A program made the translations under genes and the position numbers. A stretch of DNA of 39,134 bases, from the NCBI GenBank assembly GCA_964390735.1, contig CAYMIY010000004.1:1-39134 (forward strand). Direction: 5' to 3'. This document shows positions 1,809 to 33,467 of this stretch, one piece after another (position 1 is the first letter of the stretch; every line of letters begins with the position of its first letter). The stretch comes from an uncultured Gammaproteobacteria bacterium. Lineage in GTDB: Bacteria > Patescibacteriota > Microgenomatia > UBA1406 > GWC2-37-13. The notes below the pieces were generated by a model. The model was not told where the DNA came from. It saw only the letters and a program-made list of their open reading frames with translations, and did no database searches.

Positions 1809-4139
1809 ATGTCAGAGAAAACCTACCTAGAAAGCTTTGCTTATTATTTTAAGCGGTATAGATTTAAAGCTAATATATCCACACTTAGACAGTTTGCAGA
1901 TCTTATGGCTGCTGAGGGACTATATTATGACGTAAGTAACTACACTCGATGGCAGAATGGCGAAAGGATACCCAATGATAGAAAAATACTACTAGGTATG
2001 ATTCGCGTGTTTATAGATAAGAATGCTATAAGCACAGTTGAGGACTGTAATATATTTTTACATGCCGCGAAACAACTACCGCTAAAAAAAGGTGAAATAA
2101 GTAACTTGCAGGTATTTAAAGAAAGTATTAGAAATATGCTGCCAATAGTTTTAGACGATTTTGTAGGGAGAGAAGATTTTTTGAAAGATATAAATTGGAG
2201 ACTGATAACTTATAACAAAATTTGTATAACAGGAACAGCGGGAATTGGCAAGACTAGTTTTGTTATATATTTAGCGTATCTGCTTCAGAAAACGTTTCAG
2301 GAAGGTGTTTTTTATTTCCGAGTTGATATACAGTATATAGATACTATTTTGCTTGATATAGCGCGTTTTTATGGAGAAGATGTTAGCACAATAAAGGGAT
2401 TAAATGATAGGTTAATTTTCGTAATGAGTATCTTAAAAAGCAAAAAGACTGTTATTATACTTGATAATATTGACAATTATAAAAACATAGATAGTCTTAT
2501 AAAATCACTTGATGGATATTGTAAGTTTATACTTGTATCACAATACTCACCTCCCTTGTATCGTGATTCATATCATTTTAATTTATCTGGATTCAGTGAG
2601 ACAGAGACGTTACAATTGGCCGAGCACAAACTTGGAGAAGAGTATGTAAGGAATAATAGGGCTGAAATACTAGAAGTTGCTAAATTATCAGGATATTCAC
2701 CTCTTGCTCTTGATATTATGTTTAGTTATCTTGACACTCAGAGAATTAATGCAAAGGAACTTCTAGAAAAAATAGATAATATAATGCTGCCGATCACTTA
2801 CCAAAGCACATATGATAATAAAACTGTTGCGTCCTCAATAGAAATAAGCTTATCAACTCTAGAAAATAATGAAAAAAAAGTAGTATCTTCTTTATCTATG
2901 TTTGAAGGAACGGATATTAGTATAAGTGCTTTAAGGTCAATCCATAATATTCGTGAAGAAGAAATACGCAAAATTTTAGCAAGATTGATTGATTTATCAC
3001 TCATAGAAAGGTCAAAAACTGATAGGGTTAGAATTCATCCACTCGTAAGAACATACCTCAGACAAAAAGTAGTCTCTTACAAATGGTATCTACTATTAAC
3101 TAAGTATTACCTTCATTTGAATAATTTTGAGTACGAACTTGACAATATAAGAGGCGTAATGCAATATCTGAGTTTAAATAAACAATCAAACAGCTTAGTT
3201 AGTCTATGGAATAAAGTGGCGGTCTCATTATTAGAGGAAGGTAGATATGAAGATATAAAAACATATAAAGATATGTTGCAAAATATTGCTTATAGAGACA
3301 CTTTACCCACAATAATTTTAATACTTATAACGCTTATATACCTTCTTGCTGGATTTTTTGTATTAGTAAATCCAAATCATAGCAAGTTCTTTTCAATGAT
3401 TTACTGGCCAATAGCGAGTTACGGTCTGATCTATGGATATGTTATATACCGAAAGTGGAGAGGTTTTAGTAGTTTAATAGGTAGATCAATTTTTTTGTTT
3501 ATACTTGGGCTTACATGTCAGGTACTAGGACAGATATTATATTCTATCCTAACAATAATGGAATCGAACATTACTCCGTATCCATATCCGTCAATAGGCG
3601 ATATCGCATACTTTGGCAGTATCCCCATGTACATAATTGCAACAATCTTACTAGGACAAGCTATAGGTATTAAAATAACGTTAAGATCCTTGAGTAGTAA
3701 AATTCAATCTGTACTTATTCCAATATTTATATTAACCGCTTCATATACTGTATTTTTAAAAGATTATTATTTTGATTTCTCAAATATTCCAAAAATAATT
3801 TTGGATTTTGGTTATCCATTGGGCCAATCTATTTATTTATCTTTTATAATATTGATCTTTGTTTTATCACAACAATATCTGCTTCCTATATTAAGAAAAG
3901 GCATTTTCTTAATTATGATAGCATTAGCCATACAGTTTACAGCGGACTTTATTTTCTTGTATCGTTTTAGCCACAATATGTGGAATATCTCAGGAGATTT
4001 TGGTGACCTGATATATCTTTTAGCCTATGCTACCATGGGTTTTGCGCTTCTTCAATTTGATTACACTTACAAACTCAAGAAGCTTAATAATACCGATTTG
4101 TTCACGAAAGTGAAGAAATACATCTTTTCAACTTCCTAA
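1809..4139 (+). CDS. HTH / NB-ARC-type STAND NTPase fused to a C-terminal multi-pass membrane domain
   Basis: N-terminal XRE-like HTH segment (ISTLRQFADLMAAEG..DVSNYTRWQNGERIP). FVGREDFL...ITGTAGIGKTS is a Walker A, KTVIILDNID a Walker B, GYSPLALDIM is GLPLAL-like, and RVRIHPLVRTYL sits at the MHD-like position. The C-terminal ~270 aa are hydrophobic helices paralogous to ORF 661-1473. Confidence 0.75.
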   Translation: MSEKTYLESFAYYFKRYRFKANISTLRQFADLMAAEGLYYDVSNYTRWQNGERIPNDRKILLGMIRVFIDKNAISTVEDCNIFLHAAKQLPLKKGEISNLQVFKESIRNMLPIVLDDFVGREDFLKDINWRLITYNKICITGTAGIGKTSFVIYLAYLLQKTFQEGVFYFRVDIQYIDTILLDIARFYGEDVSTIKGLNDRLIFVMSILKSKKTVIILDNIDNYKNIDSLIKSLDGYCKFILVSQYSPPLYRDSYHFNLSGFSETETLQLAEHKLGEEYVRNNRAEILEVAKLSGYSPLALDIMFSYLDTQRINAKELLEKIDNIMLPITYQSTYDNKTVASSIEISLSTLENNEKKVVSSLSMFEGTDISISALRSIHNIREEEIRKILARLIDLSLIERSKTDRVRIHPLVRTYLRQKVVSYKWYLLLTKYYLHLNNFEYELDNIRGVMQYLSLNKQSNSLVSLWNKVAVSLLEEGRYEDIKTYKDMLQNIAYRDTLPTIILILITLIYLLAGFFVLVNPNHSKFFSMIYWPIASYGLIYGYVIYRKWRGFSSLIGRSIFLFILGLTCQVLGQILYSILTIMESNITPYPYPSIGDIAYFGSIPMYIIATILLGQAIGIKITLRSLSSKIQSVLIPIFILTASYTVFLKDYYFDFSNIPKIILDFGYPLGQSIYLSFIILIFVLSQQYLLPILRKGIFLIMIALAIQFTADFIFLYRFSHNMWNISGDFGDLIYLLAYATMGFALLQFDYTYKLKKLNNTDLFTKVKKYIFSTS

Positions 4140-4208: not shown

Positions 4209-4742
4209 ATGCATATATTATTTTTGACAGGTAATAACCAACGCAACGTGGAGTGGGCTCAAACACTCAAAAGTAAATTTGAACAGGTGGGGTATACGGC
4301 TTCGCTTATATACTCAGATACGTGGAAGATGGATACGTATGGAGATTTGGATATGTCCTATGAGTTCGAGGAATCAGCCAGGATCCTGAAAGGAATAAAG
4401 GATTATATCATTTGTTCAATTTCAACAGGGGGATTAATAGCACTAAAAGGTATGTATGAAAAGATATATTCTCCACAAAAATGTATATGTATCGGTATAC
4501 CTATTGTGTGGGGGTATGACAGATTCTCACACGAAAATGCATGGCTGGAACATTTGCATGTTCCTTCACTCTTTATTCAAAAGAACGCAGACCCGATTAC
4601 ATCTTCAGGAATGCTCAAGCGAATTCTCAAAAAAATGAACGTGCAAAACAGTAGACTGCATGAACTGGTAGGGCATACGCATACCTATAACGAAACGGAC
4701 GAGATTTTTGAGGAGTGTGTGGAATTCTTAGCTTCAAAATAG
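4209..4742 (+). CDS. Small alpha/beta-hydrolase-fold-like protein (177 aa)
   Basis: ILFLTGNN start, nucleophile-elbow-like CSISTGG, and late acidic (NADPI) and His (GHTH) residues in the usual order. The last ~15 codons (NETDEIFEEC.EFL) are repeated downstream as fragments. Confidence 0.6.
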   Translation: MHILFLTGNNQRNVEWAQTLKSKFEQVGYTASLIYSDTWKMDTYGDLDMSYEFEESARILKGIKDYIICSISTGGLIALKGMYEKIYSPQKCICIGIPIVWGYDRFSHENAWLEHLHVPSLFIQKNADPITSSGMLKRILKKMNVQNSRLHELVGHTHTYNETDEIFEECVEFLASK

Positions 4743-4752
4743 TCCTATAGTA

Positions 4753-4781
4753 TTGACAATTTCTGCTTTTTTTTATATAAT
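4753..4781 (+). promoter_or_regulatory. Consensus sigma70-type promoter of the first GC-rich cassette
   Basis: TTGACA at 4753-4758, 17-nt spacer, TATAAT at 4776-4781. It is preceded by CCTATAGT at 4744-4751, a module shared with the cassettes at 8373 and 9792. Confidence 0.6.
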
Positions 4782-4805
4782 TAGAACATAAACTGCAGAC
4801 TAATA

Positions 4806-4828
4806 GGTGGGCAAAAACCACCTTTATT
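4806..4828 (+). terminator. Short hairpin plus T-run. Either the hydrolase gene terminator or a 5' attenuator of the cassette transcript.
   Basis: GGTGG gcaaaaa CCACC followed by TTTATT. It lies about 20 nt downstream of the predicted start from the 4776 -10 box. Confidence 0.4.
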
Positions 4829-4859
4829 CTGCTTTGTGCACTTTTATATAATGCGTCTT

Positions 4860-4993
4860 CTGTACATCCTGAGAATCAGGGGCTTCTCTAGCTTATGCGT
4901 ATATTCGTAAGCTACAGGAGCCCTTGATTGGGTAGCTAGGCGTATGTCTAGCTGGATTAGTATGCGGTTGTAAGGCCGCTAAAGGAGTGTCAG
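4860..4993 (+). promoter_or_regulatory. Structured 5' leader (several hairpins) upstream of the 4994 ORF
   Basis: CCTGA-gaa-TCAGG at 4868-4880. Nested GGGCT..AGCTTA-loop-TAAGCT..AGCCC. AGCTAG-gcgtatgt-CTAGCT. GCGG-ttgtaagg-CCGC immediately before SD AAGGAG. Two of the loops contain GCGTAT. Confidence 0.3.
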
Positions 4994-5689
4994 ATGAAGA
5001 CCTACGACGTCAATGGTCGCGAAGTCACCGCCGGGATCAAAGTCGCGATGGAACCCCAGCCCCATGTGGTGCTGGGTGACGGTGGGAACAAGAGGGCGAC
5101 CTGGGTGGCCATTGGCCAACGGGACGCCGGTACGATCATCGTGCGGCCGGATATTCCCTGTCCGAAGCAGGGAGGTAGCGATTTCACCGCTGACCCCGCA
5201 ACCTGCGCAGCGGAGCATAGGTGCGATCAGTGTGGGGAAATGTATGGCCCATGGGAGTCAACCACAAAGCTATACAACTATCGCTACCACCCGAATGCTG
5301 GCACAGTGGCTGGCCCTGAGCAGATTCAGGATGCCGGCGTCATGCAGCTTGAGAGCGGGAAGATGCTGATCGTCGCCCCCCGGCAAGGTAACCGCATTCT
5401 GGTGCTCTGGCGCTTCGAGTCGGGCTACCGTGGCGGTGCCGAGATCACCGCTGGCGAAGGCGTCAAGGTCGTCGCTGCGGACAAAGCTTGGCATTCCGGC
5501 CGTGGCAACATGGGCGAGACCGCCGAGATGTTGGCCATCATGGAGCCAGGTCAGGAGCTCCGTGCCGAGCGGTCGGGACGCCACATTGAGGAGACGCATG
5601 CGCGTCTGCGATACGACGGAACGAACATCATCGTCGAGTACGGTGATGAAACGCTTTTCGCCGTTGAGGCACAGGGCCAGTACCTGTAG
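4994..5689 (+). CDS. GC-rich hypothetical protein (231 aa), possible Cys-cluster/zinc-ribbon-like element (PCP...C...CDQC)
   Basis: SD AAGGAG lies 7 nt upstream of the ATG. High third-position G+C. A hairpin terminator follows directly. The overlapping ORFs in other frames are expected from the GC-rich composition. Confidence 0.7.
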   Translation: MKTYDVNGREVTAGIKVAMEPQPHVVLGDGGNKRATWVAIGQRDAGTIIVRPDIPCPKQGGSDFTADPATCAAEHRCDQCGEMYGPWESTTKLYNYRYHPNAGTVAGPEQIQDAGVMQLESGKMLIVAPRQGNRILVLWRFESGYRGGAEITAGEGVKVVAADKAWHSGRGNMGETAEMLAIMEPGQELRAERSGRHIEETHARLRYDGTNIIVEYGDETLFAVEAQGQYL

Positions 5690-5713
5690 CACAGTTCACA
5701 GATTGTGCATTAT

Positions 5714-5768
5714 GACCAGGAACGAGTGCTTTTAGCTCTCGTTCCTGGTCCAACTACTTTATTTTTTT
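5714..5768 (+). terminator. Intrinsic terminator of the 4994-5689 cassette
   Basis: 13-bp stem GACCAGGAACGAG / CTCGTTCCTGGTC (5714-5726 / 5738-5750), followed by CAACTACTTTATTTTTTT. Confidence 0.7.
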
Positions 5769-5835
5769 ATACACACCTTCTTAATTATATTAATAACGAA
5801 ACGGACGAGATTTTTGAGGAGTGTATGGAGTTTCT
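5750..5835 (+). repeat. 86-bp direct repeat, copy 1 (identical to 7045-7130)
   Basis: CCAACTACTTTATTTTTTTATACACACCTTCTTAATTATATTAATAACGAAACGGACGAGATTTTTGAGGAGTGTATGGAGTTTCT read identically at both positions. The flanking bases differ: 5749 t vs 7044 c, and 5836 t vs 7131 g. Confidence 0.9.
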
Positions 5836-5845
5836 TAATGATTAG
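5768..5845 (+). pseudogene. Orphan 3'-end fragment of a hydrolase paralog (...NNETDEIFEECMEFLND*)
   Basis: A 32-nt core ATAACGAAACGGACGAGATTTTTGAGGAGTGT at 5793-5824 is identical to 4687-4718 of the intact gene. There is no upstream coding body. Confidence 0.75.
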
Positions 5846-5851
5846 TTGCGA

Positions 5852-6985
5852 CTAAGAAGCTAATTTCATTTCGTGGTCATTATTCACATCTCTTTCAGTT
5901 AAAAAAGCAGGTACACGACTGTCGATAAGCCATCGCTGATTTTCAGGAATGGTTGCCGTCCATTTCTGGTACATGTCTTTCATTCGTCCGGCAGTTTTTG
6001 GAAACTTATCTATAAACTCATCTATGTCAATTCGGTCTGAATTAACGTCTTCATCTGGGTAATATGAATTATCAGTTTCTATTTGATCAGTAAACTCTCC
6101 TACATCTTGCATAATGCCAGATACTAAATTGATGTTTAAATTTCTCCGATCCTCATTATAATCATACAAATCGTCTGAAAGTTGCCAGGCAAGCACAGTA
6201 TGAAGAAATGTTCGAGTTCTCATATGTGCAATTTGTTCACGTTTACCCGTAGAAACCGTATCAGGGGATACAGCAAAGATATTGGTGATAACATCAACAA
6301 ACGGTCCTACTGTACCGAAACGAAGTGCGTGAGCCTCGTCAAATGAGTAAGAGTAGCGCCCTTCAAAGCATTGTTGCATATATGTAGAGACATCTAGAAA
6401 GTTATCCATAAGCCAGGATATATGTCCGCATTCGGCTTCTGAATAAGAGTGGCTATGAACTAATATTTTTGTGAGTATATTCTTTAAGTCACTTACTGTA
6501 GCAGTTTTGTCTTCTTTGTATTTCAAAACAGGGATAGCTTCAACCACTTCAGGAGCAATATACATCAAGCCGCGCGATTCAAGTTGGCTTCTCTTTTCAT
6601 CAAAAACACTATCGGCTCGATTAAATGTATCTATAAACAGTAAGGTTGCCAAATGTTTAGCAGGATCTTTTGCATCCATATCTTGAAAGAATTTTTTTGT
6701 CATTTCGAACCAGGCGATCGAATTTGAACGTACGCCTTCTTTTAACCAGCCCGTAATAATTTCTTGCTGAGTAGTTGTCAACGAGTATTTTTCACCTAAC
6801 CGCTGAATTTCATCATTACCGGATATTCCTAGGAGCAGGCGGGCATTTATACCACCATATTCGCTTATCGCGGCATCTACTAATGCATTAGGATCCACGC
6901 TAAGTGGGTTTTTAGATTCATTATATTCAGCTATATATGCTCGTTGGTCAGAGTGACTTAATTCAGACATACTATTATTATACAC
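5852..6985 (-). CDS. Hypothetical acidic protein (377 aa from GTG 6985; 372 aa from ATG 6970), with a weak isoprenoid-synthase-like motif
   Basis: Long AT-rich ORF bracketed by the 86-bp repeats. AWQLSDDLYDYNEDRRN resembles the second Asp-rich motif of squalene/phytoene-synthase-type enzymes. On the minus strand TATAAT sits 6 nt before ATG 6970, so the mRNA may be leaderless. Confidence 0.7.
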   Translation of the reverse strand: MYNNSMSELSHSDQRAYIAEYNESKNPLSVDPNALVDAAISEYGGINARLLLGISGNDEIQRLGEKYSLTTTQQEIITGWLKEGVRSNSIAWFEMTKKFFQDMDAKDPAKHLATLLFIDTFNRADSVFDEKRSQLESRGLMYIAPEVVEAIPVLKYKEDKTATVSDLKNILTKILVHSHSYSEAECGHISWLMDNFLDVSTYMQQCFEGRYSYSFDEAHALRFGTVGPFVDVITNIFAVSPDTVSTGKREQIAHMRTRTFLHTVLAWQLSDDLYDYNEDRRNLNINLVSGIMQDVGEFTDQIETDNSYYPDEDVNSDRIDIDEFIDKFPKTAGRMKDMYQKWTATIPENQRWLIDSRVPAFLTERDVNNDHEMKLAS

Positions 6986-7044
6986 TCGTGTTTAAACAAA
7001 TTGATTTGTTAGTTTTTACTCCACACTACGGTAAAGTTCGGTGC

Positions 7045-7130
7045 CCAACTACTTTATTTTTTTATACACACCTTCTTAATTATATTAATAACGAAACGGA
7101 CGAGATTTTTGAGGAGTGTATGGAGTTTCT
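7045..7130 (+). repeat. 86-bp direct repeat, copy 2 (identical to 5750-5835)
   Basis: See copy 1. The offset between the copies is 1295 nt. Confidence 0.9.
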
Positions 7131-7155
7131 GGCTACAAATAAACCTATAGAATAA
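7063..7155 (+). pseudogene. Orphan 3'-end fragment of a hydrolase paralog (...YTHLLNYINNETDEIFEECMEFLATNKPIE*)
   Basis: This is the tail of listed ORF 6937-7155. It matches GHTHTYNETDEIFEECVEFLASK at the end of 4209-4742. The upstream part of that ORF is just the antisense of the 5852-6985 gene start region. Confidence 0.75.
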
Positions 7156-7170
7156 TTATCTATATAAATC

Positions 7171-7179
7171 TGGTATACT
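7171..7179 (+). promoter_or_regulatory. Extended -10 promoter (TGgTATACT) for 7214-7615
   Basis: TGGTATACT at 7171-7179. SD AGAGG lies upstream of ATG 7214. Confidence 0.45.
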
Positions 7180-7213
7180 ATTACTAGAAAAAGTAGATAA
7201 AAAGAGGTGTCCC

Positions 7214-7615
7214 ATGCCTAAAGTCAAGAAGCAAGCTGCACATGTTGTACCTTATGCCGAGGAACTTATGCAGTACAGTAAGATCGTAAGTGAATTACTA
7301 AATCTGTTCGGTCTCCAGCTTATTAAAAGGTTGGAACTTCAACGAGCCAGAGGAATACTTACTCTGAGCACAGAGCCTATAGATCCAAAGCGAGCTGAGT
7401 GGAACAAGCTTGCAGCAGCATGGCGGGCTGAAACAGCGGATGTTCTCAGGACAGCCAGAGATAAACAGAAGTCTTTCTGTGATCGACTAATGACCATCCG
7501 TGCGACTCTCGCTCCCTCTGCATATTCCGTGGTTACGAAACAGATCCAGAAAAATAACCGTCGCTATGCAAGGAGCGATTTGAAGCTTCGGCGGGCTAGG
7601 CTTGAGGATCTGTAA
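7214..7615 (+). CDS. Small helical/coiled-coil-like protein, family member 1 (133 aa)
   Basis: Shares AEWNKLAAAWR and the C-terminal LRRARLEDL with the ORFs at 7856 and 8900. Charged, heptad-like composition. Confidence 0.75.
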   Translation: MPKVKKQAAHVVPYAEELMQYSKIVSELLNLFGLQLIKRLELQRARGILTLSTEPIDPKRAEWNKLAAAWRAETADVLRTARDKQKSFCDRLMTIRATLAPSAYSVVTKQIQKNNRRYARSDLKLRRARLEDL

Positions 7616-7644
7616 TAGGAGCTGACAACTTTTTCCAAACTACA

Positions 7645-7675
7645 ACCAGTACTGGGCGACAAACTCAGTACTGGT
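7645..7675 (+). terminator. Hairpin after 7214-7615
   Basis: ACCAGTACTG ... CAGTACTGGT. The outer arms are homologous to the hairpin at 9302-9332. The downstream T-tract is weak. Confidence 0.5.
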
Positions 7676-7710
7676 AACATCTTTCTCAATTCCATAATAC
7701 GGATGCATAA

Positions 7711-7768
7711 AATAATAACGGACGATATTTTTGAGGAGTGGATAGAGGTTTTGAATGGTACTTTATGA
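7711..7768 (+). pseudogene. Most degraded hydrolase 3'-end fragment
   Basis: AATAATAACGGACGATATTTTTGAGGAGTGGATAGAGG aligns to the 4687-4725 core with a 5-nt deletion (frame-breaking) and several substitutions. Confidence 0.6.
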
Positions 7769-7774
7769 TATAAT
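7766..7774 (+). promoter_or_regulatory. Extended -10 promoter (TGaTATAAT) for 7856-8251
   Basis: TGATATAAT at 7766-7774. The leader contains the palindrome TGAACG-ca-CGTTCA. Confidence 0.45.
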
Positions 7775-7855
7775 ATATCACTTTGTGATAGATTGTTGGG
7801 AGGCTTGAACGCACGTTCATACGAACCTTACGTAATGTAGATAAGGAGAACGAAA

Positions 7856-8251
7856 GTGCAAAGAATGGACCAGGAAGCGATCAACCGCGAGCACAAGCTC
7901 GCGCGATATGTACGAATAGTAGAAAGGTTTGCGGAAGAGGTTGGCAAGCTAATTAAGCAGCAGGAAGCTCTCAAAAAGGAGCGCCGAAACATTGTGTCAG
8001 CGCGCACGCCAGACAAAGGAAAGATGGTCAACTGGAACGAGCGAGCTATCGCTTGGCGTAATCTCCAGTTTGGTGCTCTCAGAAAAATGAGAGCTAAGGA
8101 ACACGAGGTATTGACAGAACTTTCAGATATGCTTTCGCGACTTGAGGAAAACGAAAGAAGCGCATTCGAGAACAAAAAAAATCAGATCAAGCGAGCTTTC
8201 AAGAAAGAGTACCTGAGGCTCAGATCGCGGAATCTAGATGAGATTCAATAG
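7856..8251 (+). CDS. Small helical/coiled-coil-like protein, family member 2 (131 aa, GTG start)
   Basis: SD AGGAG lies 7 nt before GTG 7856. VNWNERAIAWR and the C-terminal LRLRSRNLDEIQ align with members 1 and 3. Confidence 0.75.
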   Translation: MQRMDQEAINREHKLARYVRIVERFAEEVGKLIKQQEALKKERRNIVSARTPDKGKMVNWNERAIAWRNLQFGALRKMRAKEHEVLTELSDMLSRLEENERSAFENKKNQIKRAFKKEYLRLRSRNLDEIQ

Positions 8252-8269
8252 ATTCCAGTCTGCACACAC

Positions 8270-8308
8270 ATTGGTGTCTGGTCTGGCTCCGCCAGACCAG
8301 ACACCAAT
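8270..8308 (+). terminator. Perfect 18-bp stem / 3-nt loop hairpin after 7856-8251
   Basis: ATTGGTGTCTGGTCTGGC tcc GCCAGACCAGACACCAAT, followed by ACTACTT rather than a clean T-run. Confidence 0.5.
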
Positions 8309-8381
8309 ACTACTTAAAATGACTCAAAACAATGAAATGATAATAGAGAATGCTAATTCATGATGAATAAGTCCTATAATA

Positions 8382-8410
8382 TTGAATTATAACATTGTAT
8401 TTGCTATACT
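8382..8410 (+). promoter_or_regulatory. Sigma70-type promoter of the second GC-rich cassette
   Basis: TTGAAT at 8382-8387, 17-nt spacer, TATACT at 8405-8410. CCTATAAT at 8373-8380 sits at the same 32-nt offset from the -10 box as in the 4744 module. Confidence 0.55.
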
Positions 8411-8419
8411 TTCTACATC

Positions 8420-8439
8420 TGGCCCTTATGCATGGGCCA
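8420..8439 (+). promoter_or_regulatory. Conserved 5'-UTR hairpin / inverted repeat TGGCCC-N8-GGGCCA
   Basis: Lies between the -10 box and the SD. A homologous element is at 9840-9859. Both are followed by (A)GGA(G/A)G..TCGACATG. Confidence 0.5.
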
Positions 8440-8456
8440 ATACACAAGGAGTCGAC

Positions 8457-8768
8457 ATGAAAATCCAGCTGATTGATGCAGAAGGCGTCCTGGTGCGTTC
8501 GGTGCTGGCGGCTATGCCCAATAGCCTCGATTCGGGGATGCGCGTCCAGATCACCGATGAGGTCTGGAGGCGCTCCGGGGAGGATATCCATCCTGATGCG
8601 CTCTTGTTCTCAATGATCGGCGATGCCTGGGCCCGGGTGGCCTGGGATGCCCTCACCCTCAAGTATGTCATTACTGTGGTGGGGAGGGACCTTGCCGCTG
8701 CTATGAACTGCTGGCGGGCGGCCCTTCTCCACGTGGGTGTGGAGGTTGCCCGGGTCGTCGCCTTGTAG
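8457..8768 (+). CDS. GC-rich hypothetical protein (103 aa), paralog of 9881-10198
   Basis: SD AAGGAG precedes ATG 8457; the listed ORF starts at TTG 8382, which lies inside the promoter. It aligns by eye with the 9881 product (MKIQLIDAEG / MTLHLVGKDG; RVQITDE / RLMITGT; ARVAWD...YVITVVGRDL.AA / ATLHWH...YFTVVSDNLTNA). Confidence 0.7.
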   Translation: MKIQLIDAEGVLVRSVLAAMPNSLDSGMRVQITDEVWRRSGEDIHPDALLFSMIGDAWARVAWDALTLKYVITVVGRDLAAAMNCWRAALLHVGVEVARVVAL

Positions 8769-8776
8769 CAGCACAG

Positions 8777-8815
8777 GGTTTGCGGGACGGAGTTTTCACT
8801 TTCGTCCCGCAAACC
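8777..8815 (+). terminator. GC-rich hairpin after 8457-8768
   Basis: GGTTTGCGGGACG ... CGTCCCGCAAACC. The arms are identical to those of the hairpin at 10208-10243. Confidence 0.55.
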
Positions 8816-8854
8816 TATAATCTTTCGCAATACGCATTATACCTACCTTCTATT

Positions 8855-8863
8855 TGATATAAT
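8855..8863 (+). promoter_or_regulatory. Extended -10 promoter (TGaTATAAT) for 8900-9292
   Basis: TGATATAAT at 8855-8863. SD AAGGAGG precedes ATG 8900. Confidence 0.45.
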
Positions 8864-8899
8864 ACCGTCAGGCAACAAAAACAAAAAGGAGGATGTCCA

Positions 8900-9292
8900 A
8901 TGGCTAAGTCAAAACTTCGCCCTGAACTCGCAAGTGCGATTGAGGCCTACAAAACGGTCGTCCTTGAGCAGAAAAAGAATCTGGACAGTGCTTTTAACAC
9001 ATTCGACCGTTTGAGGAAAAGGCGCAATGGGTTCATTCAAAAAAAGAACCAGGAAGAGGAAGTCCGGCAGAACTGGAACAAGAGCGCGGCAGAATGGCGC
9101 GTTACCAAAGAGCGAGTGTTGGCTGCAGCTCAGATGGCACATGGTCCGGCGCATGCTCGTATAACGGCAGTGTTGAATGGTCTGAACAATACAGAAGAGC
9201 ACTACAAATTTCAGCGGCAGTTTCATACGATAAATGGCTTTTTTACGGCTGCAGATAGAAAACTTCGGGAGGCTCAGCTCGAGGATCTGTAG
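8900..9292 (+). CDS. Small helical/coiled-coil-like protein, family member 3 (130 aa)
   Basis: QNWNKSAAEWR and the C-terminal KLREAQLEDL match member 1. Strong SD. Confidence 0.75.
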   Translation: MAKSKLRPELASAIEAYKTVVLEQKKNLDSAFNTFDRLRKRRNGFIQKKNQEEEVRQNWNKSAAEWRVTKERVLAAAQMAHGPAHARITAVLNGLNNTEEHYKFQRQFHTINGFFTAADRKLREAQLEDL

Positions 9293-9301
9293 CATTCATC
9301 A

Positions 9302-9332
9302 CACCAGTGCCGAGCAAAGCTCGGTACTGGTG
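9302..9332 (+). terminator. Hairpin after 8900-9292
   Basis: CACCAGTGCCGAGC aaa GCTCGGTACTGGTG. It overlaps the next promoter. Confidence 0.5.
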
Positions 9333-9339
9333 GTATAAT
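9331..9339 (+). promoter_or_regulatory. Extended -10 promoter (TGgTATAAT) for 9373-9738
   Basis: TGGTATAAT at 9331-9339. SD AAGGAGG precedes ATG 9373. Confidence 0.45.
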
Positions 9340-9372
9340 GGAGCAGGACAAGCAATCAATAAGGAGGATACG

Positions 9373-9738
9373 ATGGACGCTAGGATCAAAATCAAATTCA
9401 ACACGGTGATATTTCATCTAGAGGAGCTGGCGACAGATCTAAACCGTCTGAAATTGTTACTGCGCTACGTTACACCATTGAGGAGTAAACGCAAACGATC
9501 GAAGAAAGAGACCGATAAGCTGACAGGCTATTTGAGGTCAGCAGAAGGTACTCTCGAGGATGCTGAAAATCAGAAGAAGGATATAGATGAAGGTCTGAGA
9601 CTTATTGCTCAGCTCGTTCAGAAACATACCATTACTCTGAATAAACAAGATAAGGAAACTATCGCAAATGCGCGCACAACATGCGACACATTAATCGCAG
9701 ATTGCCGGGCGTTGTATAATAGAATTAGCAGCACATAG
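9373..9738 (+). CDS. Small helical hypothetical protein (121 aa), not obviously in the WN..A..WR family
   Basis: Start moved from listed 9307 to ATG 9373, because 9307-9332 is the preceding hairpin and AAGGAGG lies 5 nt before 9373. Charged, heptad-like sequence. Confidence 0.7.
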   Translation: MDARIKIKFNTVIFHLEELATDLNRLKLLLRYVTPLRSKRKRSKKETDKLTGYLRSAEGTLEDAENQKKDIDEGLRLIAQLVQKHTITLNKQDKETIANARTTCDTLIADCRALYNRISST

Positions 9739-9749
9739 ACTCACTATCA

Positions 9750-9776
9750 TCAGATCTGGGCTCAGCCCAGATCTGA
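9750..9776 (+). terminator. Perfect 12-bp stem / 3-nt loop hairpin after 9373-9738
   Basis: TCAGATCTGGGC tca GCCCAGATCTGA, followed by AACTACTTTTT. Confidence 0.55.
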
Positions 9777-9821
9777 AACTACTTTTTAAAACCTATAATA
9801 CTACACTTTTTTCCTATATTT

Positions 9822-9830
9822 TGATATAAT
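9822..9830 (+). promoter_or_regulatory. Extended -10 promoter (TGaTATAAT) of the third GC-rich cassette
   Basis: TGATATAAT at 9822-9830. CCTATAAT at 9792-9799 lies 33 nt upstream of the -10 hexamer. Confidence 0.5.
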
Positions 9831-9839
9831 TGCCAGATG

Positions 9840-9859
9840 TGGCCCACATGTAGAGGCCA
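9840..9859 (+). promoter_or_regulatory. Conserved 5'-UTR hairpin / inverted repeat TGGCC-N10-GGCCA
   Basis: Homologous in position and sequence to 8420-8439. Confidence 0.45.
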
Positions 9860-9880
9860 AGAACAGAGGAAGGTATCGAC

Positions 9881-10198
9881 ATGCCAATGACACTTCACTT
9901 GGTTGGTAAAGACGGGCGCAAAGCGGGTATGCCGCTCGATGCACTGCCCCAGGAACTGCCGCCGAATACGCGGCTGATGATCACCGGCACCCTCACAGAC
10001 GATGAGGGCTCGACTGACGGGCCCGATCACTTTCTGACCGCGTGCGGCAGCAATGGCTATGCCACGCTGCACTGGCATGATTGTGATTGCTATTTCACCG
10101 TCGTGTCGGACAACCTGACCAACGCGGCGGTGCTTCTGCAGGCCTGCTATAAGCTGGCTGGCGCGAACGTGGCGATGGTTTTGTCCTGCCAGATCTAG
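9881..10198 (+). CDS. GC-rich, Cys-containing hypothetical protein (105 aa), paralog of 8457-8768
   Basis: SD GGAAGG, then TCGAC ATG as in the 8457 cassette. High third-position G+C. Same terminator arms as the 8457 cassette. Confidence 0.7.
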   Translation: MPMTLHLVGKDGRKAGMPLDALPQELPPNTRLMITGTLTDDEGSTDGPDHFLTACGSNGYATLHWHDCDCYFTVVSDNLTNAAVLLQACYKLAGANVAMVLSCQI

Positions 10199-10207
10199 CT
10201 TTCCCTC

Positions 10208-10243
10208 GTTTGCGGGACGGAGCTTAGCTCACGTCCCGCAAAC
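10208..10243 (+). terminator. GC-rich hairpin after 9881-10198
   Basis: GTTTGCGGGACG ... CGTCCCGCAAAC, followed by TTATTCATT. Confidence 0.55.
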
Positions 10244-10275
10244 TTATTCATTCCTTAATTCTGGGATTAACCTGA

Positions 10276-10305
10276 TTGACTTTCTCCCTGTAGATCCGCT
10301 ATAAA
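10276..10305 (+). promoter_or_regulatory. Possible promoter of the histidine kinase gene
   Basis: TTGACT at 10276-10281, 18-nt spacer, TATAAA at 10300-10305. ATG 10312 would then be nearly leaderless. Confidence 0.3.
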
Positions 10306-10311
10306 TAATGT

Positions 10312-13116
10312 ATGAGTTCTTTCAGTAGCTATATTGTAATGGTGTCTTTTGTGATGACATCGATACTCTCGCTCATTGTCTATATTAACAATCCGAAATC
10401 GTGGACAAACAGACTTCTCTGTATGCTTGGCAGCATGCTGGCATACATCATTCTGTTCAATTATTTTGCAGTCACTGCAGAAACTGAAGTACAACGCGTA
10501 TTCTGGATACGATCCATCATGGCAATTACGTCGATTATACCAATCACCATGATTGTGCTGGCGCACACATTCCCGGAACGAGAAATAACTCTCAATAAAT
10601 ACTTCATTTTTTCAGGTATTTGTTTTTCACTTGCACTTGGCGTACTTTCTTATACTGAACAGATAATATCTCATTACACTCGAAGTGATCTTATCGCTCC
10701 GTTTATCCCTGGTTTATCTACCTTGTTGTATGGTATCTATTTTGCGACTTCCATGATATTAGCCATACTTATGTTATTTAAGAAGTATAAACATAGTGTT
10801 GGGATAGCACGTATGCAGATCAAATATTTCATCCTGGGTGTATTCCTGGTTTGGGGATTGATATTCGTTGCAAACATTATGTTTGTCGTTATACTTAAAA
10901 CCGTAGATTTTACGCTTTATGGACCTTCGATATCATTTATTCTTGTTGGACTTCTGACATATGCAATACTCAGACATCGATTTCTCGATGTCAGGATGGT
11001 TGCCATGAGATCGATCGTATATCTCATGGTAGGATTACTCCTAAGCATAGCATATGCGCTCAGCCTTTTTACTCTACGACTTTTTGTTTTCAATATACCA
11101 ATCAATCTATATAACCTGTTTACCTCTACGGTGCTTGCGTTAATTATGGCATATAGTTTTCATCCTCTGAGTAAGTTTTTTAAATCGCTTACTGATAAAT
11201 ACTTTTTTAAAAGTGGATATGATTCGAATAAACTGCTACGCATACTCGGAAGAATAATGTCATCAACCTATGTTCTTGCTGACTTAACGGATCTTATTTT
11301 GCATCAAATAATGCAGACGTTAAAAATATCATCCGGATATATCGTTCTTATTAAAGATGCAAAGATCACGTGGCATAAAGTGAACGGAGACAAGGAAGCG
11401 GATCTGAAAGATAATGAAATAGACTACCTTATCCAGGCAGCTCATATGAAAAAAACAGAAAACGTACTCATTTTCGAAGAAATGGAAGAAGAAAAAGAAA
11501 AAGAGATAATGAGAAAGTATCACGTCAGTATCGTTTTACCACTCATTGTAAAAAATGAAGTAATTGGAGGCATGCTTCTGGGGCCCAAAGAATCGGGTGA
11601 TATGTATTCAGTGGAAGACATTAACATTCTCAAAATCATAACGCCGGAGATTGCGATGGCCATTCAAAACTCCGAGTCATACGAAGAGATCAAAACATTT
11701 AACATGACTCTCGAAAACAAAATAGAACAGGCTACTGATGAGTTTAGACAGATCAATGAGGAAGTATATAAAAAAAATCTCGAACTCGCAGAGCGTAACA
11801 AAACACTCATGCTCTTGAGACAAATTGATGAAGTCGTACTGAGCTCAGTTACTGATACCAAGCAGATAGGACAGAAAGTAGTTGACCTCATAGCAGAAAC
11901 TGCTCATTTTAGATTTGTCATGATTTCAGTTATCGACAAAGAACATAAAAAAATAAACGATCTGGCGATTGCTGCGCAGAAAAATAATCTTCCTGCAACT
12001 CTTGTCGCGGGGAATATGAGTATTTCAATGTACGATGAATCAAATCTGATCGTCAAATCGATACGCCACAAAACAATCGAACGTACAACAAAAGGGAGTG
12101 AAATACTCGGAACAATACCCATACAAGAGCATATTAATGAATGGGTCGCATACCCCATGGTTGTTCGTGGCGAGGCAATGGGAGCGTTGGTGATCGGACT
12201 CGAGAAAGGTTATGCAGAGCTGAGTGAATATCAGAAGGATCTTATAGATCGGTTAGTAAGTGTTATAGGGATTTCACTTGATAACGCAGTCCTGTATCAG
12301 ACACTTCAGGATGCCAATGAGCGGCTCAAGCAGATTGATTACATGAAGGATGAATTCGTTTCAGTCGCATCACATGAACTGAGAACACCGATGACGGCAA
12401 TCAGATCCTACTTATGGCTTGCATTATCAGGAAAAGGTGGCGAACTCACCGAAAAGCAGAAATTCTATCTTGAAAGATCATATAACTCCACAACCCGTCT
12501 TATTAAGCTGGTAAACGACATGTTGAATGTATCTAGAATTGAGTCCGGACGTATGAGTTTTGAGATGCAAGAGGTAGACATGGCAAAACTGACTGATGAA
12601 GTGATCGGAGAAGTAAAGCCACGCGCTGATGAACTCGGGGTGATTCTCCGCGTCGAAAAAGCGTTATCTCAGTTACCCCATGTAGTAGCCGACCCTGACA
12701 AAATAAAGGAAGTAATGATTAATTTCATTGGTAATGCATTTAAATTTACGCCTAAAGAAGGAGAAATCGTTGTTCATTTCAAAATAGAAGGACAGGAACT
12801 TGTAACCACAGTAACAGATACGGGTGAAGGCATCGCAAACGATGATATAAGCAAACTATTCCAGAAATTCAGCCTCGTCAAAGGATCGTATCAGACTAAC
12901 CAGCAGGCATCACAGGGAACAGGCCTTGGCTTGTATATTTCAAAATCAATTATTACTGAACACCAAGGAAAGATCTGGGCTGCTTCACCCGGTCGGGGAA
13001 AAGGTGCGACATTTGGATTTACATTACCATTGTTTACTGAAAATATGCTTGCCATGATGAAAGAAGCCCACGGGGGAAGCGATAGTGGTCTGGGCATTAT
13101 TCACACGGAAATATAG
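10312..13116 (+). CDS. Sensor histidine kinase: N-terminal 7TM-type membrane domain, two GAF-like regions, HisKA and HATPase_c domains
   Basis: H-box FVSVASHELRTPMTAIRSY, N-box INFIGNAFKFTP, G1 VTDTGEGI, G2 GTGLGLYISKSI. The N-terminal ~300 aa are hydrophobic, with YINNPKSWTNRL as seen in 7TM kinase N-domains. No response regulator gene is in the window. Confidence 0.9.
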   Translation: MSSFSSYIVMVSFVMTSILSLIVYINNPKSWTNRLLCMLGSMLAYIILFNYFAVTAETEVQRVFWIRSIMAITSIIPITMIVLAHTFPEREITLNKYFIFSGICFSLALGVLSYTEQIISHYTRSDLIAPFIPGLSTLLYGIYFATSMILAILMLFKKYKHSVGIARMQIKYFILGVFLVWGLIFVANIMFVVILKTVDFTLYGPSISFILVGLLTYAILRHRFLDVRMVAMRSIVYLMVGLLLSIAYALSLFTLRLFVFNIPINLYNLFTSTVLALIMAYSFHPLSKFFKSLTDKYFFKSGYDSNKLLRILGRIMSSTYVLADLTDLILHQIMQTLKISSGYIVLIKDAKITWHKVNGDKEADLKDNEIDYLIQAAHMKKTENVLIFEEMEEEKEKEIMRKYHVSIVLPLIVKNEVIGGMLLGPKESGDMYSVEDINILKIITPEIAMAIQNSESYEEIKTFNMTLENKIEQATDEFRQINEEVYKKNLELAERNKTLMLLRQIDEVVLSSVTDTKQIGQKVVDLIAETAHFRFVMISVIDKEHKKINDLAIAAQKNNLPATLVAGNMSISMYDESNLIVKSIRHKTIERTTKGSEILGTIPIQEHINEWVAYPMVVRGEAMGALVIGLEKGYAELSEYQKDLIDRLVSVIGISLDNAVLYQTLQDANERLKQIDYMKDEFVSVASHELRTPMTAIRSYLWLALSGKGGELTEKQKFYLERSYNSTTRLIKLVNDMLNVSRIESGRMSFEMQEVDMAKLTDEVIGEVKPRADELGVILRVEKALSQLPHVVADPDKIKEVMINFIGNAFKFTPKEGEIVVHFKIEGQELVTTVTDTGEGIANDDISKLFQKFSLVKGSYQTNQQASQGTGLGLYISKSIITEHQGKIWAASPGRGKGATFGFTLPLFTENMLAMMKEAHGGSDSGLGIIHTEI

Positions 13117-17991: not shown

Positions 17992-20900
17992 TCAATTCAC
18001 AATCCACCAGTTGAAGGTGATATCTGTTGGCATTGGCCCGCCTGAGATTGAGACTTTGAAATATGGTTTACAAGCTGTATCACCTTCGGCGCAGGTATGC
18101 TTGTCAGCGACAAACAAATTCTTGTTCTGGAGTGCAGAGGTAGATGTCACATAAATCAGGGAACCTGTCTTTACTTTCTCGTTATAGATAATGATCTCAC
18201 TCTGACTGGCAGGTAGTCGACCGACACCGATTGTCTTGCGATTCGTTTGCAAGGCAGGTGCATAAATACCGTTATTGGTAAAGTTTGTTGCGGCAGGAAT
18301 CACGGCCGCAGAATTTGTGGCATCAAGGTATTTATCGAGTGACAGATCTTTAAATTGTGCAGATCCTGATGCATCGATTGAAGCTACTTCCAGTCCCTGA
18401 TTATTCTGGACGGCTAATTTTGTATTTTGTACGTCCGGCTGACCGGCCACATCACTTGAAGCTAATTTCACATTTATATTATCATTCGGTATGATTGCTT
18501 CGATGATATTTGTTTTAACACCACCTTTTGCGATGATTGTTCCCTGTGTGGTTATAGTACCATCCTTAGCAATGACTACACCTCCGTCAAATAGATTGAT
18601 CGTTGAGAGTGATGAGAGCTTCAATTCCCATGAAAGTGAGAGAATACTTCCATCAGTGATTATCATACTACCGACTGATAGGTTGTGGGCAATTGAGACA
18701 TCATACATATTCGCATTATCGGTGACCGTGAGTTTTTCCAGATTTATAGCACTTGCTTGCGTAGCCACACTTACGGGTTGATTCAGGTTTTGATAATATG
18801 ATGGATCGGGGAGTGGTTGATTCTTAAGATCGGTTAATATCTTCTGAATATCGTTTACATTGGTGCTCAATTGCTGCAGATTCGAAGATTGACTTGCGAT
18901 TGAGTTCTGCGTGAGACCAAGATTATTTGCCAATGCATCGATATTATCAGCTTTGATTTCTTTTGCGGTAAGAGTTCCTGATACCGAAGCTTCATTCGTA
19001 TTCAGCGAACCCGCTGCTAACTGACCAGATATACTTGCCTCTTTTGTTTCTACTTTATGTGATGTAACTGTGCCACTAAAAGTTGCATTACCTGCGGCAT
19101 CAAGAGTGGTGACAGTTTTCCCTTCCATACCCTTAATAATGACGTTCGCGAGTGCACCCTGATTGGTTGGATTGCTCAGGTCGATGGTAATTGTGTCTTC
19201 CTGTGGCTTAATCGTATTCGTCTCGACATTATTAATCTGAGCAGTATCTCTTACGTTCAGATTATCTGTTTCCACAACAGGTGATGTAATCCTTTCTGAC
19301 ACCGTAAGCCTTTGGATCGTTCCATCAAGTGCGGTAAAGGATGTGGACGTGAGTGATATAAACGAACCAGTTGCAGACTTAATTGAAGTTGCCAGTATAG
19401 TCTTCGCTGACAACATATTACTCACGATCGCATTCTGTGTATCGGTTAACCCTGTGAGAATTGTGCCGGCAACTACTTTTGCGTAACCGGTTGTTGCACT
19501 GAGCACATCGCCGCTTGCGTTGGTTACAGTTGAGGCTGTGGCGCGAGTGACCGTAACCTGTCTATCATAGTCTGGCTGAGGTAAGAGTGCATTCTGACTC
19601 TGTGATAAGGTGAGCGTTCCGTCAGAATTAATTGCTACCTGAGGATCGTACCATGTTAAGTTAGTAAATACGAGTATTTTTCCTACTTTATTTGTATCCT
19701 GCTCAGTATAGCTTTCAAGCGCCTTACCGATAACAATTCCGGGCGTAATTGCTTTTACAGCTACACCAGGTATAGTGGAAGTAGTTAAGTAATCACCTTC
19801 ATAAATAGGACCATTTTGAGTAGATACTTTAGTGGGTATACGTCCATTTAAAGCTAGTTTAGCCACATTTATATAGTCATCTGAGCCAAGTGTTATTCCC
19901 GGACTTGTAGAAATAATACCCATTACTTTTGAGTCATGCTGTACGGTTGATTTATTTAATCTTCCGTTATCAATTTTTACGATGTCTCCCGGTTCAAGTA
20001 TTACACCGGGGGTTGTTGGATAATTCTCAGCTATATCAGCACGATCGATCATATTACCTGAAGTATTACTTGTAGGTATGGTAGGTCCAACTGAGCCCGT
20101 TGGAGGATCATCTTGCCATGTTCTTATGTAATCCACATCATGAGTTGCTGCTGTTCCCGTGGATTCGGTACGGGCAAATAAGTCCATAGCATTGCCTGTA
20201 CCTGGGAGAGTAGCAGTAACCGAGACAGATGTTCCATCAACACTACATACAACCTGTGGAGTAGAACCGTTCATAATCTGAACTCTTAAATTCTGAAAAG
20301 CGCTTGTAGAAATATTTACCCCTGTAGAAGTAAATGTTTCACTACTAGCATTTGCTGTCACACACTGCCATACCGTATCCGCGGCTCTTTTACCAATCCA
20401 TGCATGACGTGAACCGGTGTTTGCATCACTTGTTGGAAGCGCTGATGAAAAACCAAAGAATGCTCTCTGTGTACTAGCAGTAGAGCCCATTTTTATAGCA
20501 GCTTCGTATACTGGATTGTTATCCTGTTTATAAAATCCGTTTGTAAGAGTACTTTGTGAGCTGAGTGAACATCCTGCACCTGCCGTACTACTTGAAGTCA
20601 CCATACGGAAGACGCCACCAACAACTCCTGCTGTAAACGTGCTACTACATGACGCTCCTGTACCTACTACAGGAGAGGTCCATCTGTTTGTTGTATCAAG
20701 TACTTTTCCTGTAAAGTCGTCCTGAAATGTATTAATTCCTTGCTGATTCACCATTCCTCTTACGAGCTCAAGATCAAAAAAACCCGTACCACCATTTTGC
20801 ATATTTAATCTTGTCCAGTTGTTCTGAGAAGTGGACGCGATATTTCCTATATTCATGGTTACTGTATTTCCTGTATTGGCATTTGTTGTATCCAAATATA

Positions 20901-26616: not shown

Positions 26617-26782
26617 CAGAATCTGATTGAAATTCTCTTTCTACTGGTAAATGAAAATTTAGGTCGCTGAGGTTCATTGTGCATGTGACTATGAGGAACG
26701 TCATATGGTCCAAACTCAGCTGCAGGATCTAGATTTGATTTGACGCTTTTTAAAGCCCCAAACAATATGCTTTTTACTGTAT

Positions 26783-31742: not shown

Positions 31743-31882
31743 TATATGTATATTAAAGTGGAAATTTAAACCTATGTCAATAACAATTATTCCAAAATTA
31801 TAATCTTACATATGTTAAGTAATTTATACATACTTAATATATAAGTAAATTACTATATATAAGTTTTTGAATAAAGTAAAGA

Positions 31883-33349: not shown

Positions 33350-33429
33350 AGTGCACTCCTGGTTTAATTAGTATATACATCATAATAGGAGACGACAATA
33401 AAATGCAATGTCAAAATTGGAATTGCCTC

Positions 33430-33458: not shown

Positions 33459-33467
33459 TTTACTTAT

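Follow-up and report, generated by a model that had tools for sequence, protein, structure and literature searches.

A hydrolase gene 3′ end as the probable site of serial cassette insertion in a metagenomic contig

Organization of the locus

The contig CAYMIY010000004.1 (assembly GCA_964390735.1), a 39-kb stretch of DNA (39,134 nucleotides) that was analyzed at full length and is called the window in the following, carries an array of small gene cassettes. The array covers 5.6 kb between a gene for an alpha/beta-fold hydrolase, which serves as its anchor, and a histidine kinase gene (Table 1). The last codons of the hydrolase gene are repeated behind the proximal cassettes, and the units of the array were very probably added one after another by recombination at the 3′ end of this gene. 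For comparison, five related metagenome loci were found by exact-protein look-ups in Logan, ENA and JGI. In total, six array variants (window, L001, L002, L003/L011, L016 and L025) with about 25 cassettes altogether were compared. From its gene content, the host looks like a small-genome bacterium of the candidate phyla radiation (CPR) type.

Seven cassettes are located between the Leu codon ending at 4730 and position 10297, and they follow a common plan. A unit starts with the tail codons and the stop codon of a gene end, followed by a promoter-like sequence, a Shine-Dalgarno sequence, an open reading frame (ORF), a hairpin and an AACTAC or ACTTC motif with an AT-rich stretch; the proximal units end with a copy of the core repeat. 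The promoter-like sequence of cassette 1 matches the consensus at 12 of 12 positions, and TGnTATAAT is found in other units, often with CCTATARTATTGAM before it. These promoter-like sequences are individual matches, as a generic scan for promoters and terminators was not enriched over shuffled sequences. The ORF of cassette 2 is inverted relative to the common frame.

Of the eight perfect hairpins of at least 10 bp in the window, five are located in the array, one behind each of five of the seven cassettes. Their stems comprise 10–18 bp and vary in sequence from unit to unit. The hairpin of cassette 5 is imperfect with 17 pairs, and the reverse-oriented cassette 2 has no hairpin on its distal side. 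The hairpins behind the 103-aa and 105-aa ORFs (8776–8816 and 10208–10243) have the stem GTTTGCGGGACG/CGTCCCGCAAAC in common. Both ORFs also appear to be distantly paralogous, suggesting that a cassette was duplicated inside the array.

Three of the cassette ORFs, those encoding 231, 103 and 105 aa, have a G + C content at third codon positions (GC3) of 0.72–0.75, whereas the flanking genes range from 0.26 to 0.40. In a Paceibacterota homologue of the 231-aa protein, GC3 is host-like (0.40). The three ORFs are therefore foreign in composition.

Table 1. Positions of the genes, core copies and cassettes at the locus (ORF, open reading frame; GC3, G + C content at third codon positions; z, z-score against shuffled sequences).
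Feature	Position	Strand	Description
Left-flank gene	1809..4139	+	776-aa protein with STAND/AAA-type NTPase region and multi-pass membrane C-terminus; Pfam AAA_22/NACHT/NB-ARC matches weak
Anchor gene	4209..4742	+	177-aa alpha/beta-fold hydrolase, from predicted structure and Foldseek
Core copy 1	4687..4730	+	Inside the hydrolase gene, codons Y-N-E-T-D-E-I-F-E-E-C-V-E-F-L; variable DNA from 4731
Cassette 1	4731..5836	+	Tail ASK and stop; TTGACA-17-TATAAT 4753–4781; structured 5′ leader; 231-aa ORF 4994–5689, GC 61%, GC3 0.72; hairpin 5714–5750; AACTAC/AT-rich arm 5750–5792; core copy 2
Core copy 2	5793..5836	+	32 nt exact, Met-type continuation, then displaced tail ND and stop
Cassette 2	5837..7131	.	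Tail ND and stop; 377-aa ORF on the minus strand 5852–6985; AT-rich arm 7045–7087; core copy 3
Core copy 3	7088..7131	+	32 nt exact, then displaced tail ATNKPIE and stop
Cassette 3	7132..7753	+	Tail ATNKPIE and stop; extended -10; 133-aa ORF 7214–7615, WN..A..WR family; hairpin 7645–7675; core copy 4
Core copy 4, degraded	7712..7753	+	20 of 21 bases of ACGGACGAGATTTTTGAGGAG at 7718; left side 5 nt shorter
Cassette 4	7754..8359	+	TGATATAAT, promoter-like; 131-aa ORF 7856–8251; 18-bp perfect hairpin 8270–8308, then ACTAC
Faint fifth remnant	8348..8388	+	Tail and -35 part only (GAATGCTAA..AGTCCTATAATATTGAATT); score 36, shuffle mean 22.5, standard deviation 3.9; z ~3.5
Cassette 5	8360..8815	+	103-aa ORF 8457–8768, GC 61%, GC3 0.75; hairpin 8776–8816
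Cassette 6	8816..9790	+	Two ORFs: 130-aa, WN..A..WR family, 8900–9292 and 143-aa 9307–9738; hairpin 9750–9776, then AACTAC
Faint remnant	9774..9830		Tail and promoter part only; z ~4.6
Cassette 7	9791..10296	+	105-aa ORF 9881–10198, GC3 0.74; L001 homologue 8018–8323; hairpin 10208–10243
Right-flank gene	10297..13116	+	7TM-GAF histidine kinase; conserved; L001 homology resumes at 10297

The core repeat

A preliminary description of this DNA, made from the letters alone, had reported a 32-nt core at the end of the hydrolase gene that recurs exactly at two sites and in a degraded form with a 5-nt deletion at a third. Both observations could be reproduced. The core ATAACGAAACGGACGAGATTTTTGAGGAGTGT is present in identical form at 4687–4718, 5793–5824 and 7088–7119, and the chance expectation is 0, as no match with up to three mismatches occurred in 100 dinucleotide-preserving shuffles. 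The degraded copy was found again with the extent given in Table 1. A local-alignment scan of the whole window revealed no further core copy above background; the two faint remnants in Table 1 comprise tail and promoter parts only.

The homology of the copies to the gene comprises 44 nt (4687–4730, codons for YNETDEIFEECVEFL) and ends at the Leu codon of EFL. After this codon, each copy has its own short tail and stop codon, namely ASK in the hydrolase gene and ND and ATNKPIE in the copies downstream. The alternative gene ends EECMEFLND and EECMEFLATNKPIE, each followed by a stop codon, were recovered as described before from the ORFs at 5705–5845 and 6937–7155. Copies 2 and 3 carry the Met-type continuation ATGGAGTTT, which is also found in the hydrolase alleles of L001, L003 and L016, whereas the resident gene is of the Val type (GTGGAATTC). 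The preliminary description had given paralogous alleles, rather than the resident gene, as the source of the fragments; by comparison of the gene ends, the fragments are not paralogues but allelic forms of this gene end known from other strains.

The core is by far better conserved than the rest of the hydrolase gene, synonymous sites included. Among four full-length alleles, the mean pairwise nucleotide identity is 0.98 at 4689–4718 versus ~0.75 in the gene body, and in the most divergent pairs conserved residues are encoded by identical codons at a fraction of 0.80–0.93 in the core and of 0.39–0.46 elsewhere. Core copy 1 is proposed to be the recombination site.

To the left of the core, copies 2 and 3 have additional sequence in common, resulting in a 95-nt repeat (5741–5835 and 7036–7130, 96% identity). 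The ~51 nt before the core in this repeat have no counterpart in the hydrolase gene and therefore do not represent an upstream coding remnant. Upstream remnants, which the preliminary description had named as the sign of duplicated whole genes, were looked for, and none resembling hydrolase coding sequence was found. Across four independent junction types, the left edges of the remnant copies vary by no more than ~7 nt (4687 to 4694), and an AT-rich motif of non-gene origin (ACTAC..TTCATATAAATG) adjoins the left edge of the core copies.

Directly 5′ of copy 4, the stretch ATAATACGGATGC at 7693–7705 resembles a further, incomplete repeat of the core's left end that is absent from the homologous L011 junction; it may be the scar of a lost cassette. 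Two other kinds of target site were ruled out for the core. A Xer/dif-type or other dyad-symmetric site was rejected because no conserved symmetry is present, and a tRNA-type target because the window contains neither tRNA or tmRNA genes nor a match to an Rfam family.

Comparison of related loci

The segment between the hydrolase and the kinase gene is replaced from strain to strain. Homology of the flanks to L001, L002 and L003 ends at 4729–4731 and resumes at 10297. Strain-level variation, which the preliminary description had expected at this locus, is therefore present in the form of the six array variants. The L001 contig spans the entire array from the hydrolase to the kinase gene; its hydrolase gene has 84% nucleotide identity to that of the window and both flanks are the same, and its ten cassettes are all different from those of the window. 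A different first cassette each was also found in L002 (hydrolase 92%, tail RMG), L025 (93%, tail E) and L003 (72%, tail EDGK). Behind the first cassette, L002 and L011 have a well-preserved core copy and L001 a decayed one, with no copy detected farther downstream in L001.

Across the variants, the hydrolase tail changes with the first cassette and reads ASK, ASI, RMG, RDV, EDGK or E. The incoming DNA therefore supplies a replacement 3′ end, as had been suggested, and in every comparison the boundary is located right after the EFL codons.

Decisive evidence of mobility of the units came from L016. Its hydrolase gene belongs to the L003 lineage, being 92.6% identical to that of L003 and 69–74% identical to that of the window. 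Behind this gene, L016 carries cassettes 1 and 2 of the window at 85–97% identity with core copies on both sides, and these cassettes are lacking in its sister L003. The high identity between window and L016 extends from ~4731, right after EFL, to ~7113 inside core copy 3, and drops to 31–36% thereafter. Between L016 and L003, identity stops directly after the EFL codons and the first cassettes differ. Since the Val/Met codon after the 32-nt core tracks the hydrolase lineage, whereas the tail (ASK/ASI) tracks the cassette, the crossover between the window and L016 can be placed at the right edge of the core. These alignments show that recombination in the core exchanges cassettes, either one at a time or as blocks.

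Cassette 4 of the window together with the degraded core (7706–8257) shares 86.7% identity with the second cassette of L011. A different cassette precedes the homologue in L011, and the core form shortened by 5 nt is common to both. Because this junction is shared, the distal junctions are older and the proximal cassettes lineage-specific or recently exchanged. Such an order of old distal and new proximal units is the expectation for insertion at the gene end, and it agrees with the earlier proposal that older ends are pushed downstream and that the most distal copy is the oldest.

In L002, the core copy behind the first cassette is directly followed by a gene with an IS30-type HTH_38 N-terminal domain (1249–1733); a transposase appears to have landed beside this copy.

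A scan of GTDB-representative and JGI contigs with the core pattern resulted in chance matches only, which are located in unrelated phyla (L004–L008, e.g., at the end of a RimO-like gene), indicating that the lineage is absent from these collections. The encoding-contig look-up with the hydrolase of the window itself returned no record.

Cassette proteins and the leader of cassette 1

Cassettes 3, 4 and 6 encode members of a helical family of ~130 aa with the pattern WN..A..WR, in which W..A..W is invariant. Further members were found in L001 (5370–6928), L002 (814–1200), L011 and L025 (631–954). Among 5.8 billion proteins, six matches were obtained, all from hydrolase-linked array loci. As copies within one array are only 20–30% identical, the family diverges very fast. 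The 231-, 377-, 103-, 143- and 105-aa ORFs are unrelated to it. None of the cassette proteins could be credibly assigned to a family by searches of Pfam, NCBIfam, PHROGs and PADLOC; one weak match was obtained in a phage collection and none in a plasmid collection.

At least 60 proteins from CPR and other metagenome bins make up the family of the 231-aa protein of cassette 1. The structural model of this protein, with a predicted local distance difference test (pLDDT) score of 92.5, is all-beta and contains a CxxC-type pair (CDQCGE). No significant match was found in the PDB (best E = 0.05), and the model may represent a new fold. Distant homologues (L020–L024) are encoded in ordinary contexts, often beside TrmB regulators and with no array. 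A 372-aa neighbor in L020 was considered as a relative of the 377-aa cassette protein and rejected as unrelated.

For the 377-aa protein of cassette 2, 15 relatives were found among 1.84 billion representatives. The L016 copy has 94% amino acid identity and is truncated at its 5′ end. The protein contains an aspartate-rich DDLYD motif that can be read as reminiscent of class I isoprenoid synthases.

The 231-aa ORF of cassette 1 is preceded by a leader of 251 nt behind a sigma-70-type promoter (window 4743–4996). The predicted RNA has a minimum free energy of -83.3 kcal/mol (z = -6.3 versus shuffles), and its fold comprises a three-stem junction and a small hairpin that resembles a terminator. 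The leader is 87–95% conserved in L016 and has no Rfam match. It may be an undescribed cis-regulatory RNA.

The anchor gene and other genes of the window

The hydrolase is barely recognized by sequence profiles (Pfam Hydrolase_4, 16.6 bits, under the cutoff). Its AlphaFold model has a pLDDT of 75 and a predicted template modeling (TM) score of 0.76. A Foldseek search of the PDB with this model retrieved the carboxylesterase Est30 and monoacylglycerol lipases with a probability of 1.0 and TM scores of 0.67–0.72, and the model and this similarity to solved esterases assign the protein to the alpha/beta-hydrolase fold. S70 or S72, D128 and H156 can be read as putative catalytic residues. The last helix (residues 162–175) is encoded by the core. 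No useful match was obtained when the PDB was searched with the sequences of the hydrolase and of the 377-aa protein.

The gene on the left flank is syntenic in L001, with a blastn identity of 65–70%. On the right flank, the kinase gene starts at 10312, 15 nt after the end of the array at 10297.

The only recombinase-type match from the Pfam and NCBIfam scans is a stand-alone protein of 156 aa (26783–27253) that matches only Pfam Phage_int_SAM_1/5 and has no catalytic domain. It precedes a repetitive protein of 2874 aa (repeat families D2–D5; region 17992–27253), whose N-terminal segment may be an integrase-type SAM-like domain and which likewise has no catalytic domain. At 33408–36700, a gene for a PaaX-like protein with a Cas2-like middle domain adjoins comEC, which is apparently divided into two ORFs (35319–36110 and 34429–35487), and a comEA-like gene. 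Furthermore, two tandem paralogous genes of 488 aa each are located at 30276–33349 amid a cluster of secreted and surface-type proteins (300-nt repeat D1, 78% identity).

Mechanism of insertion

In the model that we propose for the serial insertion, a cassette would be at least transiently circular and contain a core, tail codons with a stop codon, a promoter, an ORF, a perfect hairpin and the AACTAC/AT-rich arm. The circle would recombine with the core of ~44 nt, i.e., with the last 15 codons of the hydrolase gene. In this reaction, the gene would retain its own core and gain the tail and stop codon of the cassette, and the core copy of the cassette would land at the distal end of the cassette, before the previous tail. 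With each arrival, the older cassettes would be shifted towards the kinase gene, where unselected core copies would decay. The circular intermediate, the restriction of insertion to the proximal site and which recombinase of which type takes part are inferred.

A site-specific recombinase that is encoded elsewhere in the genome and acts in trans, like IntI on integron cassettes, may well catalyze the insertion, and we tentatively favor it on three grounds. First, position 4731 marks the beginning of the variable region in seven of seven allele comparisons, also where longer and better homology lies upstream; the pairs L016/L003 and window/L002 offer hundreds of better-matching bases there. Second, the left edges of the remnants fall within ~7 nt in four junction types. 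Third, the hairpin and the non-genic motif accompany the core in unrelated cassettes.

Several observations weigh against this reading. No recombinase gene, be it for an integrase or a transposase, was found in the window by Pfam and NCBIfam scans of the ORFs around the array and of the larger ORFs, and none was found in the cassettes of the six arrays, in line with the earlier statement that the window encodes no integrase. The conserved dyad symmetry that is usual for recombinase core sites was not seen in the core. An empty site was not found among the related contigs. Neither a circle junction nor a deletion variant was seen; eight predicted excision products, i.e., hydrolases with the tail ND or ATNKPIE, were absent by exact look-up in the protein collection, which is weak negative evidence. 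In addition, the repeats keep recombining with each other, as is evident from concerted arms and from core variants shared between copies. The arms of 51–52 nt on the 5′ side of copies 2 and 3 are identical within the window and identical within L016 and show eight differences between the two genomes, so that neighboring repeats evolve in concert; this pattern shows homologous exchange at variable positions. Core variants recur in the hydrolase gene and in copies behind it: two single nucleotide polymorphisms of L016 are present both in the gene copy and in copy 2, and a GATATTT variant occurs in the gene copy of L025 and in copy 2 of L002.

The same topology could be generated by homologous recombination alone, with DNA taken up by competence and exchanged by RecA at the short core, and with gene conversion homogenizing the copies. 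A circle would need one crossover, whereas a linear block would use two cores or one core and the kinase flank. As the main rival, this is a serious possibility, if a somewhat doubtful one. The concerted arms, the shared core variants, the failure to find a recombinase and the lack of dyad symmetry all speak for it, as do the ComEC (with Competence plus MBL domains) and ComEA-like proteins encoded in the window and the two-cassette block shared with L016, which has a core at each end as a double crossover would give. However, 32–44 nt of homology is near what is generally known as the lower limit for RecA-dependent exchange, and the variable region begins at 4731 in every comparison even though some pairs offer better-matching bases upstream. 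The conserved non-genic motif and the hairpin beside the core in unrelated cassettes resemble a recognized site, and the foreign GC-rich ORFs inside a standard cassette frame are left unexplained.

A trans-acting recombinase can be extended to a wider proposal, according to which the locus would be a gene-capture platform not described before and a functional analogue of integrons of independent origin. Self-expressed cassettes of one gene each would be inserted at the end of the hydrolase coding sequence by a recombinase whose gene is located elsewhere. Each cassette would carry a composite site consisting of a variable perfect hairpin, the conserved AT-rich motif and 44 nt that mimic the end of the gene, probably in a CPR-type small-genome lineage that samples high-GC donors. 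In this complete form, the proposal is speculative and rather unlikely.

Displacement of C-termini as in the orphan arrays of the polymorphic toxins Rhs and CdiA, with the cassette ORFs as immunity-like partners, is very improbable. The formal layout is the same, with a repeated gene end before displaced tails and a small, fast-evolving ORF after each, and the ~130-aa family is extremely rare and limited to the hydrolase-linked array. On the other hand, variable tails of 1–7 residues have no room for a toxin domain, and the anchor is a cytoplasmic-looking alpha/beta hydrolase of 177 aa with no delivery region. Furthermore, the cassette ORFs are heterogeneous (231, 377, 103 and 105 aa), one being located on the opposite strand, and PADLOC, Pfam and NCBIfam revealed no match to a toxin or immunity family.

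Even less probable is a tandem duplication in place of the hydrolase gene, or of a unit of the hydrolase and its neighbor, followed by decay, in which case the copies would be the remains of dead paralogues. Some duplication within the array has probably occurred, as three cassettes encode paralogues of the ~130-aa family and cassettes 5 and 7 share a hairpin stem. A duplicated hydrolase, however, is at odds with the absence of hydrolase-like coding sequence upstream of the copies, with copies that begin at the same place in unrelated junctions, with unrelated cassette ORFs of foreign GC3 and with the presence of the same block behind alleles of ~70% identity.

An assembly artefact, in which unrelated GC-rich contigs were joined via a short repeat, is the least probable of all explanations, since, although the Logan contigs L009, L010 and L012–L015 from other samples break inside the core or the 95-nt repeat and thus mark it as an assembly branch point, the independent JGI assembly L016 contains the hydrolase gene, cassettes 1 and 2 and the third core contiguously and in the same order, L009 and L010 confirm cassettes 3 to 7, L001 covers a whole array, and the repeats (32–95 nt) are shorter than ordinary reads.

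Relation to known systems

The closest known kind of system is the tandem accretion of integrative elements and integrase-less cis-mobilizable elements (CIMEs) at the 3′ end of a gene, with ICESt1-type elements at fda and the ssrA islands of Dehalococcoides as examples (PMC3146451, PMC5704250). In the latter, a dozen gene-end repeats of 20 bp occur in tandem islands together with a conserved adjacent motif (PMC3146451); as at the locus described here, this motif does not align with the target gene and adjoins the repeat. In both cases direct repeats of the target 3′ end bound the units, here with copies at 4687, 5793, 7088 and 7712, and the incoming unit restores the gene end. The units stack downstream and vary by strain, and units with no integrase persist between attachment sites. 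The differences concern size, content and target. The units of the present array comprise 0.45–1.3 kb with one or two ORFs, whereas known islands comprise 10–100 kb. None of the ~25 cassettes carries an integrase or mobility gene, in contrast to CIMEs, which are decayed relatives of integrase-bearing neighbors. Finally, insertion is directed to the codons for the last helix of a protein, and promoter, ORF and hairpin form a stereotyped frame in each unit.

Integrons, including clusters of attC sites with no integrase (CALINs), also consist of many small, mostly single-ORF cassettes with foreign composition and strain-specific content, and an array of this kind was found here. Further common features are the apparent growth at the proximal end, a site at the distal end of the cassette beside a variable hairpin, and a recombinase that is not encoded on the cassettes. 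In integrons, this recombinase is the tyrosine recombinase IntI, and the attC sites are imperfect inverted repeats with RYYYAAC and GTTRRRY boxes and extrahelical bases, of which the structure is conserved. No intI gene was found beside the array by Pfam and NCBIfam scans. By inspection, attC features were not seen, as the hairpins are perfect palindromes followed by AACTAC or ACTTC and have no RYYYAAC or GTTRRRY boxes. The repeated site is a conserved 44-nt sequence copied from a coding gene rather than a structure-defined attC, the cassettes have their own promoter-like sequences, and insertion rewrites the last codons of the gene. Membership in the integrons was rejected on account of the missing adjacent intI and attC features.

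In the orphan C-termini of Rhs and CdiA, older 3′ ends are serially displaced, each of them keeping a conserved piece and being followed by a small gene. The serial displacement of older gene ends is common to both systems. The displaced C-termini described here, however, are 1–7 residues long and contain no domain, a small hydrolase serves as the anchor, and the cassette genes are heterogeneous; an assignment to the polymorphic-toxin orphan arrays was rejected because the tails are too short.

The minimal mobile elements of Neisseria are alternative whole-gene cassettes between conserved genes with no mobility genes, and their exchange is attributed to transformation and homologous recombination. 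Variable cassettes between two conserved genes in the absence of mobility genes are found here as well. The Neisseria elements have one cassette per site and no serial repeats of a flank end, whereas the flank end is duplicated at each junction of the present array. A limited literature search, which is not proof of absence, found no report on such arrays in Patescibacteria or CPR bacteria.

Biological significance

Cassette arrays that gain genes one by one are known essentially from integrons, and accretion behind a gene is known for large islands, which either encode an integrase themselves or descend from elements that do. The locus described here merges both, with single-gene, self-promoted cassettes of integron size stacked behind a protein-coding gene in the absence of mobility genes. 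If a dedicated recombinase exists, the array would represent an independent invention of cassette capture, and its short attachment site would be new. Should RecA together with natural transformation be sufficient, the locus would show how 44 conserved nt at the end of a gene can serve a reduced genome that relies on DNA uptake as a portable handle for recombination. The cargo families are almost unknown, and either way, a defined site (4687–4730) and a comparative series of six arrays are at hand.

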